Origin: a virus
Strand: one strand, 5' to 3'
Virus record (IMG/VR): IMGVR_UViG_3300045988_007823
DNA: 39,771 nucleotides
Both the position numbers and the translations under genes were made by a program. This document shows positions 235 to 22,808 of this stretch, in pieces; position 1 is the first letter of the stretch; each line of letters begins with the position of its first letter. The notes under the pieces are model-generated. The model was not told where the DNA came from. It was given only the letters and a program-made list of their open reading frames with translations, and made no database searches.

Positions 235-439
235 TGATTGTTTCTCCCTTTGCCCAGCGAATGAACGCAAGGCGGGGTATCTTCGTCCGGTTGCCGCTGC
301 GGAATGTCGGGAACGGCAAGCGCTCCGGGCAGTCACGCGCCATGAGGGTTATGGCATACGGCGAACATCCCAAGTACGCCGCCGCAACGTTCGAGGAAAT
401 GCATCCCTTGTCCATCGCCTCAATCTCTTCAAGTGTCAT
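212..439 (-). CDS. Excisionase/MerR-type helix-turn-helix DNA-binding protein, 75 aa.
   Basis: ATG at 439 lies 8 nt after GGGAGG. The segment AAYLGCSPYAITLMARD...TKIPRLAFIRWAKGE resembles Xis/AlpA-type HTH proteins. Confidence 0.6.
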   Translation of the reverse strand: MTLEEIEAMDKGCISSNVAAAYLGCSPYAITLMARDCPERLPFPTFRSGNRTKIPRLAFIRWAKGETINGDDRPV

Positions 440-1193
440 TTCGCGCGCCTCCCAAAAACTTATCAACGAAATATTTCTGACCTTTGCCGGTAACTTTCGG
501 CGTCCGGGCGGTGAAACTGCCGGTAGCGGATGAATGTACCGTTTCCTTGATGCGGAACAGCTCTAAATCCATGCTTCTCTGCGTCGGCATATTCTTGTCC
601 GAACCGCTATTGCACAGATAACCGTCCTTGCGCAGGATTTCAAAAAGCCGCTTCTCGCCAATGTCCACGCCGTTCTGCCGGATGATCTTTGCAAGGTCAC
701 GAATGAGGATGTCATCGTCCGCCGTGCTGATCGCATAGCCGAGAACGGTTGCCGGGCGGTCGGTCTCGATCTTCTCGGCGAGAGCCTGCCGGTGTTCCCG
801 TTCCTCCTTGAGCGCTGTAAGCACTTTAATCATAGAATCGGGGTCGGCAATCATTTTCTCGACCGTGTCCGGCGTGGCGTACATCCCGTGCTTGCGGATG
901 GACGGGATTACCTCATCGGCGATCTTTGCCTGAAACCGTTCCGCCGCTTCGTTCTTCGCTTTCATGGCGAGACGGTAGAAGATGTTTTCGGGGATGAAGT
1001 TGGGTCTTTCGCCACAAGTGGCGAAACCGAGTTCCGCGAGGTACTGTTCGACGCGCTTCCAACGAACAACCTCGTTGCCACTTGTGGCAACGGTCGTGAA
1101 TCCCAGACCGCGGGCGACGGCTTCCAGATTCAGATACGCCGTGCCGTCCTTTTCGTAGCAGCTCACGCCGCTGATTGTGATAATGTCGCTCAT
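429..1193 (-). CDS. ant: Phage antirepressor with a Bro-N-like N-terminal region and an ANT/KilAC-type C-terminal domain.
   Basis: 254-aa ORF. The motif ...RFQAKIADEVIPSIRKHGMY... is typical of Bro-N, and the C-terminal half resembles KilAC antirepressor domains. Confidence 0.85.
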   Translation of the reverse strand: MSDIITISGVSCYEKDGTAYLNLEAVARGLGFTTVATSGNEVVRWKRVEQYLAELGFATCGERPNFIPENIFYRLAMKAKNEAAERFQAKIADEVIPSIRKHGMYATPDTVEKMIADPDSMIKVLTALKEEREHRQALAEKIETDRPATVLGYAISTADDDILIRDLAKIIRQNGVDIGEKRLFEILRKDGYLCNSGSDKNMPTQRSMDLELFRIKETVHSSATGSFTARTPKVTGKGQKYFVDKFLGGARNDT

Positions 1194-1333
1194 TCCTTAT
1201 CCTCCTTCTTTTCGGCTTTGATGCCGTCCAGTCTGCCCTGCAAGTAGCCGCGGACATAATCCGCGCCGTCCGGCGGGATTTGTTTCAGACTGTCGATGAC
1301 TTCCTTTGCAGCCTGTTTTTCCTTTTCGCTCAT
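1190..1333 (-). CDS. Small leader ORF of 47 aa (MSEKEKQAAKEVIDSLKQIPPDGADYVRGYLQGRLDGIKAEKKEDKE), translationally coupled to the antirepressor.
   Basis: ATG at 1333 lies 7 nt after AAAGGAGG. Its TGA overlaps the antirepressor ATG in an ATGA arrangement. It is too short to appear in the ORF track. Confidence 0.5.
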   Translation of the reverse strand: MSEKEKQAAKEVIDSLKQIPPDGADYVRGYLQGRLDGIKAEKKEDKE

Positions 1334-1351: not shown

Positions 1352-1360
1352 TGATATAAT
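1352..1360 (+). promoter_or_regulatory. Extended -10 promoter TGaTATAAT firing rightward into module A.
   Basis: TG at 1352-1353, spacer A, TATAAT at 1355-1360. There is no good -35. The predicted start near 1367 coincides with the first base of the 25-bp helix. Confidence 0.5.
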
Positions 1361-1367
1361 CGGTTAA

Positions 1368-1595
1368 CCGGCTTTAGGTACTGCGCACCCCCTCCGAAAG
1401 GAGGTGGGAAAATCAAGAGATTCTATACAGATTCGTTTGCCGAGGCGATCTCGCTCATCGCCAAAGGCTGGAAGCTGGATAGTGTCGCTTATTTCGTCAA
1501 CGGCGACGGGATAAGCATCATCCTATCTAAGTAACCTAATCCAAGTGCTTTTATATCCCCCGCAGACCTCGGGGGTACGCAGTACCTAAAACCGG
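1368..1595. repeat. Module A, one of two paralogous ~228-nt elements. A 25-bp closing helix encloses a 178-nt interior.
   Basis: The arms CCGGCTTTAGGTACTGCGCACCCCC and GGGGGTACGCAGTACCTAAAACCGG give 23 Watson-Crick pairs and 2 C-A mismatches on the plus strand. Those mismatches would be G-U pairs on the minus strand. The interior aligns with module B. Confidence 0.85.
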
Positions 1596-1602
1596 CTTGC
1601 TG

Positions 1603-1628
1603 CCGCCCTGCCGGGCGGTTATTTTTTT
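1603..1628 (+). terminator. Rho-independent terminator (CCGCCC-tgcc-GGGCGG followed by TTATTTTTTT).
   Basis: A GC-rich 6-bp hairpin at 1603-1618 is followed directly by a T-rich tract at 1619-1628. Confidence 0.65.
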
Positions 1629-1654
1629 GAAACCGCTTGACCAAACTGCAAAAG
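1629..1654. repeat. Left arm of a long inverted repeat that pairs with 1928-1953.
   Basis: GAAACCGCTTGACCAAACTGCAAAAG is the reverse complement of 1928-1953 apart from two positions. Those two positions are C-A on the plus strand and G-U on the minus strand. Confidence 0.8.
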
Positions 1655-1927
1655 GCAGATAAAGTTTAGTTACCCGTCGGGTCAGAAAGGGGGATTGATA
1701 GCGTGCAGACTTTGGTCGAAAGCTTCATGAAACCTCATCTGGGCTCGCCGCAAGTCATTTGACAGCCCCGCTTTCGTGGGCGGCTCACCGGTCGTAGTCA
1801 AATGATGTGCAGTTAAGAAACTCCATCGCTCGGAGTAGGTGTCACCAGCACCTGCGCTGTACTGCGAGCCATTCGGGCGGAGCGGGGGTCGGGATGTGAG
1901 CGACATCTCGCCCTCGCTCTGTTCCCG

Positions 1928-1953
1928 CTTTTGCAGCTTGGTCAAACGGTTTT
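1928..1953. repeat. Right arm of the long inverted repeat. It is followed by a second CCGCCC-tgtc-GGGCGG hairpin at 1962-1977.
   Basis: CTTTTGCAGCTTGGTCAAACGGTTTT pairs with 1629-1654. The adjacent hairpin mirrors the 1603-1618 hairpin but has no T tract. Confidence 0.8.
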
Positions 1954-1993
1954 CCTTTCTTCCGCCCTGTCGGGCGGGGGGTGTCAAACTTCC

Positions 1994-2215
1994 GATCCGC
2001 TTAAAATACTGCGTCCCCATGGGGGGAGGTGGTATTCGACGAGATATTACGCAAGTTCCCTGCGTGAAGCTATGGACAAGATAGCTTCCGGCTGGCGGCT
2101 TGATAGTATCGCTTGCTTTGTCAGCAATGGCAACTTGAGCATTATCCTATCTAAGTAACCCCAGCACTCTTTTTTCGCTCTGCACAATTCGGGGGCGCAG
2201 TATTTTAAGCGGATC
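1994..2215. repeat. Module B, the paralog of module A. A 25-bp closing helix encloses a 172-nt interior.
   Basis: The arms GATCCGCTTAAAATACTGCGTCCCC and GGGGGCGCAGTATTTTAAGCGGATC give 24 Watson-Crick pairs and one G-U pair on the plus strand. The interior shares GGAGGTGG, GGCTGG..GATAGT.TCGCTT and ATCCTATCTAAGTAACC blocks with module A. Confidence 0.85.
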
Positions 2216-2258: not shown

Positions 2259-2287
2259 ATTTTAACGCTACTTAGTTTAAATGTCAA
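2259..2287 (-). promoter_or_regulatory. Strong sigma-70-type early promoter for the leftward operon (TTGACA, 17-nt spacer, TAAAAT).
   Basis: On the minus strand the -35 TTGACA is the complement of 2282-2287 and the -10 TAAAAT is the complement of 2259-2264. The spacer is exactly 17 nt. It is divergent from the repressor promoter. Confidence 0.7.
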
Positions 2288-2319: not shown

Positions 2320-2348
2320 TTGACTATCAAGAATCCAAATGTTATATT
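2320..2348 (+). promoter_or_regulatory. Promoter of the repressor gene (TTGACT, 17-nt spacer, TATATT).
   Basis: -35 at 2320-2325 and -10 at 2343-2348. AAAGGAGG and the ATG at 2374 follow. Confidence 0.7.
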
Positions 2349-2373: not shown

Positions 2374-2766
2374 ATGGAGACCATAAATAAGCAAATTGCC
2401 GCTTTGATCCACGCAAAGGGAATGAACAAGTCGCAGTTTGCGGAGAGCATCAACGTATCGCCGCAGTTTATTTCCGCAGTTTGCACCGGGACTAAGCAGC
2501 CGAGCGACCGAACGATCGCTGATATATGCCGCGTGTACAACGTTAACGAGGACTGGCTGCGGGACGGAACGGGCGAGCCGTTCATGCAGCTCTCGCGCGA
2601 GGAAACCATCGCGGCGTACGTCGGAAGGATTACCGGCGGACACATCACGGACATTGAGGAGAGCATCATAAAGTTCATGGCGGAAACGCCGGTAGAGGAA
2701 TGGGAAAACCTCGCCCGCGCCCTGCGGCGGTTTGCCGAGACAATAAAAAAGCCCGATACGGAGTGA
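2374..2766 (+). CDS. XRE-family HTH repressor, cI-like, with no S24 peptidase domain.
   Basis: 130 aa. The N-terminal segment KGMNKSQFAESINVSPQFISAVCTGTKQPSDRTIADICRVYNVNEDWL is a classic XRE HTH. It has a strong RBS and its own promoter and terminator. Confidence 0.85.
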   Translation: METINKQIAALIHAKGMNKSQFAESINVSPQFISAVCTGTKQPSDRTIADICRVYNVNEDWLRDGTGEPFMQLSREETIAAYVGRITGGHITDIEESIIKFMAETPVEEWENLARALRRFAETIKKPDTE

Positions 2767-4601: not shown

Positions 4602-5711
4602 ATGAATTGCCGTAAATGCAAAAAGGAAATACCGGAGAATAGCGCGTTCTGCCTGTTCTGTGGGGCGAAGCAACAGGTAACAGAGCGTAAACGCCGGAAG
4701 CGCGGGAACCAGCAGGGGAACGCGATCAAGCGCGGGAAAACGTGGACGGCACGCTGGACGGTGGCGACGCAGAATATCAACGGAGAAATAAGGCAAATCC
4801 GAAAGACGTTAGGAGGTTTCCCCACACAAACAGCGGCTCTGGCCTACGCTGCGAATCCTACAGAGCGGAAAGAAAAGCCAAAGTATACGCCGACGCTGAA
4901 AACGTACTATGATACATGGGAAGAAACCGCGCTGCCGAAGCTGAGTAAGTCAAAGCAATGCGCGTTTAAGATCGCGTGGAAGCGCTGGGAGGCCCTGCAC
5001 AATGAGCCGATATTCTCTCTGACCATCAACCAGCTACAGGCGTGTGTTGACGACCAGACGGAAACATATTACCCGGCGCGTGATATGAAAACCGTTATAT
5101 CCCATTTGTACCAGCGGGCATACGCCGAAGGATACGCGCGGGCGAATCTCGCGCAGTTTATCGAACTGCCGCCTCTGGATGAAAAAGAGCAGCAGCCGTT
5201 CACCGAAGAAGAAATAAAAAAGCTATGGAAAGCATACGACGATGGAGACCGTTTTCTCGCGTACCCTCTGTTGATGATATACAGCGGCATGATGCCCGGC
5301 GAGCTGATGCGCTGCACCGCCGATATGATCGACGTGGAGAAATGCGAGATCATCGGGTGCGGCATGAAAACGAAAAAGCGCAAGAGTACGCCGCTCGTCT
5401 TCCCGGACTGGATTGCGCCGATGGTTGCAGACATGGCCGCGAACGTCACCAGCCAAAAGGGCTATATCGTCGGAATGAACCGGGATAACTTCTATGATGA
5501 GTACCACGCGGCGTTACAACGCGCCGGGGTGCGCGATCTGCCGCCGTATTCCTGCCGCCACACAACGGCGACGGCGCTTGCGCTGGCTAAGACCGCGCCG
5601 TCTCTGATTCAAGAAATCATGCGGCACACGAAATTCTCCACAACGCAACGGTACATTCACCCAGACATGACAGACGCGCACGAAGCGGTAAACGTGTTGC
5701 GGCAATCGTGA
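4602..5711 (+). CDS. int: Tyrosine recombinase/integrase with an N-terminal zinc-ribbon.
   Basis: The N-terminus reads CRKC...CLFCG. The C-terminus reads ...SCRHTTATALA...IMRHTKFSTTQRYIHP, carrying the R, HxxR and Y catalytic signature. It lies adjacent to the attP core. Confidence 0.9.
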   Translation: MNCRKCKKEIPENSAFCLFCGAKQQVTERKRRKRGNQQGNAIKRGKTWTARWTVATQNINGEIRQIRKTLGGFPTQTAALAYAANPTERKEKPKYTPTLKTYYDTWEETALPKLSKSKQCAFKIAWKRWEALHNEPIFSLTINQLQACVDDQTETYYPARDMKTVISHLYQRAYAEGYARANLAQFIELPPLDEKEQQPFTEEEIKKLWKAYDDGDRFLAYPLLMIYSGMMPGELMRCTADMIDVEKCEIIGCGMKTKKRKSTPLVFPDWIAPMVADMAANVTSQKGYIVGMNRDNFYDEYHAALQRAGVRDLPPYSCRHTTATALALAKTAPSLIQEIMRHTKFSTTQRYIHPDMTDAHEAVNVLRQS

Positions 5712-22734: not shown

Positions 22735-22808
22735 TGGCGGCGCGAGCTGGACTTGAACCAGCAACAACAGGTTCAGAGCCTGTTGTGTTCCCGTTACACC
22801 ATCGCGCT
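22735..22808 (-). tRNA. tRNA-Gln(CUG), 74 nt with encoded CCA.
   Basis: Hand-folded cloverleaf: acceptor AGCGCGA/TCGCGCC with position 1-72 as A-C, D arm GTGT-AACGGGA-ACAC, anticodon arm ACAGG-CTCTGAA-CCTGT, variable loop TGTT, T arm GCTGG-TTCAAGT-CCAGC, discriminator G, CCA. Confidence 0.85.

Follow-up and report, generated by a model that had tools for sequence, protein, structure and literature searches.

Pairing between the two ends of a full-length mRNA is so far understood for just a few toxin mRNAs. In hok/sok, found on plasmid R1 and the E. coli chromosome, the tac/fbi stem between the 5′ and 3′ untranslated regions (UTRs) stabilises a closed, untranslatable form of the full-length mRNA of a small open reading frame (ORF); the ribosome-binding site (RBS) is masked in this form, and the structure is kept by covariation across the family (PMC9841398). 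In aapA1/IsoA1 of Helicobacter pylori, end-pairing masks the RBS and also terminates transcription (PMC5416894). Here we analyzed IMG/VR virus record IMGVR_UViG_3300045988_007823, a stretch of 39,771 nucleotides (nt) referred to below as the window, in which two modules, A (1368-1595) and B (1994-2215), are each bounded by complementary 25-nt arms. We find that each module is the plus-strand mRNA of a gene for a 40-45 amino acid (aa) protein. Sequence comparisons further suggest, as the probable reading, that A and B are paralogous plus-strand cassettes of ~225 nt, each giving an end-paired "panhandle" mRNA for a soluble miniprotein.

We read the pairing at the RNA level because the anatomy matches that demonstrated for hok and aapA1. 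The hok product is a membrane toxin, translated via the overlapping mok frame and under Sok antisense control, whereas the phage miniprotein is predicted to be soluble, has no overlapping frame, shows no sequence similarity to the hok system and belongs to a temperate phage of Clostridia-type bacteria. The AapA1 toxin, a peptide of 30 aa, has its own dedicated antisense RNA, and its mRNA is closed by a helix of 11 bp compared with 12-28 bp here. As in aapA1, the helix would mask the RBS, and in several of the phage copies the 3′ arm is followed by a T-run.

The protein-coding gene in each module

An earlier note on this DNA treated A and B as structured elements of unsettled strand, overlooking a conserved ORF and a third module (C). 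That description is unsupported or incomplete: both are plus-strand mRNAs with the following parts (MFE, minimum free energy; SD, Shine-Dalgarno sequence).

1368-1392, plus strand: 5′ arm of the module A closing helix, in the 5′ UTR (inverted-repeat search, covariation)
1391-1408, plus strand: module A anti-SD/SD hairpin, CCTCC-GAAA-GGAGGTGGG, stacked on the closing helix (MFE fold)
1412-1534, plus strand: module A ORF, 40 codons and TAA (IKRFYTDSFAEAISLIAKGWKLDSVAYFVNGDGISIILSK; codon-position bias, AlphaFold, DUF5648 repeat)
1444-1462, plus strand: module A internal hairpin GGCGAT-ctcgctc-ATCGCC with a 7-nt loop, within the ORF (MFE fold, covariation)
1487-1516, plus strand: second internal hairpin of module A, 12 bp with loop AACGGC, within the ORF (MFE fold, covariation)
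1571-1595, plus strand: 3′ arm of the module A closing helix, in the 3′ UTR (inverted-repeat search, MFE fold)
1994-2018, plus strand: 5′ arm of the module B closing helix (inverted-repeat search, covariation)
2025-2029, plus strand: module B SD, GGAGG (sequence, MFE fold)
2036-2158, plus strand: module B ORF, 40 codons and TAA (STRYYASSLREAMDKIASGWRLDSIACFVSNGNLSIILSK; codon-position bias, synonymous excess)
2066-2088, plus strand: module B internal hairpin GAAGCTAT-ggacaag-ATAGCTTC with a 7-nt loop, within the ORF (MFE fold, covariation)
2191-2215, plus strand: 3′ arm of the module B closing helix, then a T-rich stretch, AGTTCTTTCT (inverted-repeat search)

Scans of IMG/VR, metagenomes and genomes yielded 60 loci with copies (given below by L numbers). 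The 46 distinct modules among these fall into types A and B and one further paralog type, D (MCIKTV...TLSKR). The conserved ORF is free of in-frame stops in all 46 copies, compared with 13-49 stops in each of the other two frames, and it ends at a constant position with TAA or TGA depending on the copy. Variable sites at codon positions 1, 2 and 3 number 11/6/18 for type A, 2/1/6 for B and 13/7/28 for D, and B copies differ by 49 synonymous versus 10 non-synonymous codon changes. The ORF is thus under purifying selection. In a few relatives (L024, which is IMGVR_UViG_3300045988_020305, L067 and L070) the stop codon has been lost, by TAA to TCA change or read-through into the 3′ UTR, and longer products are called, for example P0082 and P0036.

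The two ORFs of the window both end in ...SIILSK-stop and encode peptides that are 53% identical, with ~75% alignment identity between the module interiors over 71 nt; A and B are paralogs, as the earlier note held. Its further statement that only the TACTGCG..CCCC part is shared is right for the helix and wrong for the module, since the ORF is common to both. The 7-nt-loop hairpins occupy the same alignment columns in the two copies, again as described, and sit in the coding sequence at the helix-coding codons E-A-x-x-x-I-A, so part of their conservation is protein conservation. The shared interior of A and B is conserved mainly for protein coding.

The start of the gene is unusual in both copies. 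At the start position module A has ATC, 7 nt past GGAGG, with no in-frame ATG, GTG or TTG, and module B has TCG followed by ACG, while relatives carry ATG at this position, 6-8 nt past GGAGG. Elsewhere the codon is TTG (B-type copies of L011, L055 and L056, and also L072), ATA (L064, L070) or GTA (L073). Many members, L064, L070, L071 and L073 among them, place ATC, ATA, TCG/ACG or GTA behind a strong SD, and such copies are missed by gene callers or extended far upstream (P0027, P0032, P0036, P0039, P0059, P0083). B copies with TCG evolve almost only by synonymous change and are therefore probably translated. In module B, the sequence G GGG GGA also follows an ATG (2019-2021) whose frame is one base ahead of that of the conserved ORF; translated from there, the N-terminus would read MGGGGIRR, similar to MGGGKIKR in A-type relatives. 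As a speculation, a -1 frameshift at G GGG GGA would join the ATG frame to the ORF.

AlphaFold2, run on an 11-sequence alignment, predicts a beta-alpha-beta-beta fold with a mean pLDDT of 94. An exhaustive profile search found other phage proteins of 40-45 aa and multiple stretches in large proteins, the family profile matching 3-12 stretches per large protein with E down to 7e-14. These large proteins are DUF5648 by Pfam (E 1e-33 to 1e-155). In two of them, P0019 and P0029, the 134-position DUF5648 domain is visibly built from repeats, hYT....E.....I..GW..EGIAcYV, and the motif hYT..xxE....L...GW..EGIAfYV is matched across many DUF5648 proteins. Because the profile matches these repeats, the miniprotein corresponds, at the level of sequence, to a single repeat unit of the DUF5648 domain. 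The miniprotein itself scores 15.8 bits against Pfam PF18885, under the cutoff of 25 (E 0.017), and only positions 108-133 of 134 are matched. PF18885 is described as a three-repeat domain of secreted or cell-wall-associated proteins; unlike them, the phage protein consists of one 40-aa unit and lacks both a signal peptide and any partner domain. The largest 19-aa Kyte-Doolittle window, 0.8-1.25, lies under the usual transmembrane threshold, and there is no hydrophobic segment.

Sequence searches of PHROGs, PADLOC, NCBIfam and the PDB gave no family or named relative for the miniprotein, and a fold search against the PDB and BFVD returned nothing below E 0.01; the top, non-significant matches were uncharacterised small viral proteins in BFVD and sub-domains of unrelated enzymes in the PDB. 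A HicA-like toxin, suggested by the motif "L..GW.L", was rejected: there is no Pfam match, and the beta-alpha-beta-beta topology differs.

Could the modules instead be non-coding structured RNAs in which the ORF is fortuitous? Their fold z-scores are very negative (A -7.6, C -7.4 and B -6.1, for single-stranded RNA against shuffled sequence), and neither A nor B of the window has ATG, GTG or TTG at the start position. A fortuitous ORF is nonetheless scarcely credible given the excess of third-position variation, the absence of in-frame stops in any copy, the synonymous excess in B and the stop codon that varies between TAA and TGA while keeping its position, to which the high AlphaFold confidence, the profile's match to DUF5648 repeats in proteins of hundreds of residues and the relatives with ATG starts can be added. 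Among Rfam covariance models, tRNA alone reached its gathering score in the window, and the best match in 1250-2400 was no better than E 1.2.

Selection on the closing helix

Both modules are closed by a 25-bp helix, as the earlier note described. The arms are 92% complementary in A and 96% in B, and flanking bases lengthen each helix to 27 bp. The mismatches are also as described: two plus-strand C-A pairs in the 25-bp helix of A, with a third in its 27-bp extension, and one G-U in B. The helix scores, 20.6 for A and 24.3 for B, compare with a shuffle mean of ~8.4 and were reached by none of 200 dinucleotide shuffles of the flanks. In A, the inner GGGGG of the 3′ arm has an alternative partner at 1557-1561.

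We aligned 31 distinct modules, and RNAalifold recovered the closing helix and three internal helices. The outer closing helix is paired in 99% of cells, and 15 of its 17 pairs show changes in both partners. Neither the observed pairing nor the covariation of the whole structure was reached in 500 column shuffles, and sliding the partners by 1-3 columns lowered pairing from 96% to 33-44%. The two compensated inner-hairpin pairs that had been noticed between A and B recur across the alignment, at columns 82/100 (GC 19, AU 11) and 85/97 (GC 17, UA 7, AU 4).

Since the aligned copies are kin, the shuffle control alone would overstate the case, and distant relatives provide a stronger test. Such relatives, found via the protein at 33-48% aa identity (L061, L064, L069-L073, L037, L060), have arms with no sequence in common with A or B, for example TTTATTTCGCCCATGCAGCCCCCG, ACCATTGTGCGCCC, GACCGTCCCGCACCAGAGAA and ATATGGGCTGTG. 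Nonetheless, all of the 13 modules tested except L064 and L067 share one geometry: a helix of 12-32 bp in a module of 203-246 nt, in which the gap from the 5′ arm to the start is 14-42 nt (usually 14-29) and that from the stop to the 3′ arm is 22-38 nt. For 10 of these 13 modules, no more than 4 of 200 shuffles reached the helix score. No homolog with independently diverging arms was seen, and the distant relatives keep the helix in place. Compensatory change in close and distant relatives thus shows that the helix is under selection and is not a relic of duplication, which upholds the earlier claim that the pairing is selected.

The modules also vary as units. Phages carry A alone, A+B, A+D, D+A, B alone or D alone. 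In L017, L056 and L060 (and in L003 and L052), the closing-helix arms and the DNA around them are nearly identical, yet the ORF inside is of type A, B or D depending on the phage, which suggests that recombination in or near the conserved inner arm, ATACTGCG / CGCAGTAT, may exchange the cassette interior. An indel of D (L003 5793-6005 compared with L005 and L006) has its limits exactly at the arms and at a 7-bp direct repeat, TGTTTTT, which is the T-run ending each module. The window has three tandem units in the order A, C, B, each closed by a 25-nt inverted repeat. The third unit and an adjoining terminator are as follows.

1602-1629, plus strand: intrinsic terminator GCCGCCC-TGCC-GGGCGG then a T-run, just past module A (terminator scan)
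1630-1952, no strand assigned: module C, with a 25-bp closing helix of arms 1630-1654 and 1928-1952, 92% complementary (inverted-repeat search)

The interior of module C is unrelated to A and B. With its flanks (1596-1993) it is absent from phage L004, which is 95-98% identical, and the terminator, being part of this insertion, is absent there too. Near-identical hairpins, CCGCCCTGYCGGGCGG, flank module C at 1603-1618 and 1961-1976, and a promoter match, TTGACC-17-TAAAGT, overlaps its 5′ arm. We found no homolog of module C in Rfam, GenBank phages, PLSDB, two exact-pattern scans of IMG/VR or a tblastn search with its longest minus-strand ORF.

Whole-unit gain and loss could mean that the arms act as DNA, either as terminal inverted repeats of a mobile cassette or as the ends of an invertible segment, with recombination or gene conversion, and not selection on RNA pairing, keeping the two arms matched. 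The 25-bp inverted repeats around a segment of 170-270 bp recall invertons and miniature inverted-repeat elements (MITEs), the D indel and the insertion of C with its flanks fit such units, as does the presence of different ORF types between the same arms, and the phage encodes a tyrosine integrase (4602-5711). We consider this very improbable. The arm sequences are wholly different between lineages while complementarity is kept, unlike the sites of transposases or invertases, and the inner hairpins covary as well. The orientation of the modules relative to their flanks is constant in all related contigs, with no inverted copy found, although minority orientations within a population are invisible in assemblies. 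Only two copies, A and B, are present in the 39.8-kb genome, both at the lysis/lysogeny switch. The direct repeat at the D indel is the module's own terminal T-run, so slippage deletion explains the indel. We therefore rejected an inverton, for the uniform orientation, the compensatory change in variable arms and the covarying inner hairpins. A MITE or transposon was rejected because the arms vary compensatorily, there are no dispersed copies and the sole direct repeat is the module's T-run.

Strand and masking of the Shine-Dalgarno sequence

The earlier note left the functional strand unresolved. Our combined findings resolve it to the plus strand: the ORF lies on it, an SD hairpin is seated on the helix, an extended -10 element is placed upstream of A, the plus strand folds with lower energy and G-U combinations are in excess. 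The MFE of the plus strand is below that of the minus strand in 41 of the 46 modules, by a mean of 9 kcal/mol. G-U exceeds A-C by 28 to 8 cells in the closing helix and by 83 to 2 in the inner hairpins, the latter excess partly reflecting the plus-strand prediction of the structure itself. Many G-U pairs on the plus strand fall in the region of the second internal hairpin of A (alignment helices 5-6).

In every lineage the 5′ arm gives way directly to a C-rich anti-SD, followed by a loop of 4-6 nt and the SD. The version in A is CCTCC-GAAA-GGAGG, with equivalents in L003-D, L037, L060, L061, L064 and L069-L073, and the fold model predicts that this hairpin (1391-1408) masks the RBS. In the MFE fold of B, the SD (2025-2029) pairs with a C-rich stretch downstream. 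Upstream of A lies the following element.

1352-1360, plus strand: extended -10 element TGaTATAAT (TGATATAAT; sequence)

This element predicts that a plus-strand transcript would start at ~1367, where the closing helix of A begins. A simple scan upstream of A found no -35. Of 23 flank contexts, 10 have the pattern TGnTAnnnT no more than 20 nt upstream of the 5′ arm; they represent ~6 independent lineages.

From these features we propose the following mechanism. The mRNA would fold as a panhandle, with the 5′ and 3′ UTRs paired over ~25 bp and a small hairpin, seated on the closing helix, burying the SD. End-pairing would keep the transcript closed and may shield its 5′ and 3′ ends from exonucleases, and in some copies it may stop transcription at the 3′ arm. 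Translation would be held low until the helix is opened or trimmed.

Several points weigh against this proposal, in addition to the partly built-in excess of G-U in the inner hairpins. Each functional step is read from sequence. The closing helix alone is not strand-decisive, with nine G-U column-states and six A-C. Several lineages, of the L003 and L017 types, have no recognisable promoter upstream of the 5′ arm. In L072 and module C, a transcript started from the -35/-10 match would begin within the 5′ arm or past it, and the plus-strand RNA would lack that arm. A U-tract follows the 3′ arm in some copies only (the mean T fraction of the next 10 nt is 0.40), and for this reason we rejected the closing helix as a general intrinsic terminator. 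In addition, an early transcript of the minus strand must hold both arms too, and would fold.

Another explanation is that the helix acts mainly in the minus-strand early RNA. The arms would close the insert off into a stem, which would be processed by RNase III or would insulate the operon so that it still works. In favour of this, the flanking early genes always run opposite to the cassette embedded among them, a promoter to the right of B points leftward, and some relatives have minus-strand genes between their modules. A near-perfect 25-bp duplex is a typical RNase III substrate. The promoter matches in L072 and module C would likewise leave the 5′ arm outside plus-strand RNA. We nonetheless regard a mainly minus-strand role as quite unlikely: the plus strand folds better in most modules and G-U exceeds A-C, the helix is stacked on an anti-SD/SD hairpin that is sensible only in plus-strand RNA, and the -10 elements are placed for a plus-strand RNA starting at the base of the helix. 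The two roles may, however, coexist.

The cassette at the lysis/lysogeny switch

The window is the complete genome of a temperate phage, since its first 55 bases (1-55) recur at 39717-39771; it is circular or terminally redundant, ~39.7 kb in length, with 53% G+C. The modules lie among the following features.

429-1193, minus strand: Ant/KilAC antirepressor, an early-left gene, along with further early genes on the same strand
1190-1333, minus strand: 47-aa ORF, an early-left gene
2259-2287, minus strand: sigma-70-like promoter TTGACA-17-TAAAAT, 11/12 (promoter scan)
2320-2348, plus strand: sigma-70-like promoter TTGACT-17-TATATT with TG, for the cI-like gene (promoter scan)
2374-2766, plus strand: cI-like helix-turn-helix (HTH) gene
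4602-5711, plus strand: tyrosine integrase

A lipoprotein and a second HTH protein are also encoded on the plus strand nearby, and a phage-encoded tRNA-Gln (anticodon CTG) lies at 22735-22808 on the minus strand. The sole relative from genome collections is a metagenome-assembled genome of an uncultured Eubacteriales bacterium (L037), and no match to the region was found among GenBank phages or PLSDB plasmids. Among the neighbouring genes, to which the scan was confined, there is no reverse transcriptase, and a retron reading is unneeded given the conserved ORF.

In every relative the cassette is co-oriented with the repressor gene and opposed to the cro-like and early genes; it is always at the lysis/lysogeny switch. 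The promoter matches at 2287-2259 (minus strand) and 2320-2348 (plus strand) stand back-to-back, and from the leftward promoter an early-left transcript would run antisense through B, C and A. Three different small minus-strand genes lie between A and B in L047, L049 and L051, in the slot held here by C, and leftward transcription therefore crosses the modules. This arrangement resembles sar and ant of phage P22, as well as other antisense controls in phage immunity regions: a short transcript opposes an early operon, which here starts with an antirepressor gene (Ant/KilAC). The P22 sar RNA is non-coding and overlaps the ribosome site of ant, whereas the antisense-oriented unit here is protein-coding and located upstream of the genes with which the operon begins.

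Antisense transcription through the modules would also suit a type I toxin-antitoxin (TA) locus, with a panhandle mRNA for a toxic miniprotein neutralised by a dedicated antisense RNA or by the early-left transcript. Several features fit: a small ORF (40-45 codons, under ~60 aa) with 5′-3′ end-pairing and SD masking as in hok and aapA1, according to the predicted folds; weak or non-canonical start codons; tandem paralogs (A+B, A+D, D+A), which are typical of such loci; carriage by a prophage; a promoter at 2287-2259 that points through the modules; and the minus-strand genes of L047, L049 and L051. The product, however, is not a hydrophobic membrane peptide. It has a predicted compact, soluble beta-alpha-beta-beta fold homologous to a repeat of an extracellular binding domain, and PADLOC and NCBIfam gave no match. 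No antitoxin RNA was identified for the cassette and no conserved antisense promoter was found inside the modules. A type I TA locus is therefore possible but rather unlikely, and we did not file the cassette as one, since a membrane peptide is not what it encodes and the analysis turned up no antitoxin RNA.

A more elaborate and still more doubtful possibility is a new kind of switch-region module of temperate phages, made of a stable panhandle RNA with two roles. The RNA would restrain the early lytic transcript by antisense action, or sense it, as that transcript must read through the cassette, and would also be a tightly throttled mRNA with near-cognate start codons. Its miniprotein, a DUF5648 repeat, would trimerise into a binding module, and whole cassettes would be exchanged between phages via the arms. 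If this were true, the cassette would be a type I-like TA with a non-membrane toxin, or a lysogeny-maintenance device without a described counterpart.

Returning to the end-paired mRNA of a soluble miniprotein, which we consider probable, the cassette is an undescribed gene family at a phage lysis/lysogeny switch. The family is largely missing from annotations, or misdelimited in them, as its non-canonical starts (AUC, AUA and others) mislead gene callers. Given its constant site, opposing the early lytic operon, the cassette may be a regulator or an accessory gene expressed in lysogeny. End-pairing would here be found in a divergent, unannotated family of gut Clostridia-type phages, and the soluble product together with the clear covariation suggests that this mRNA design may extend beyond toxin control.

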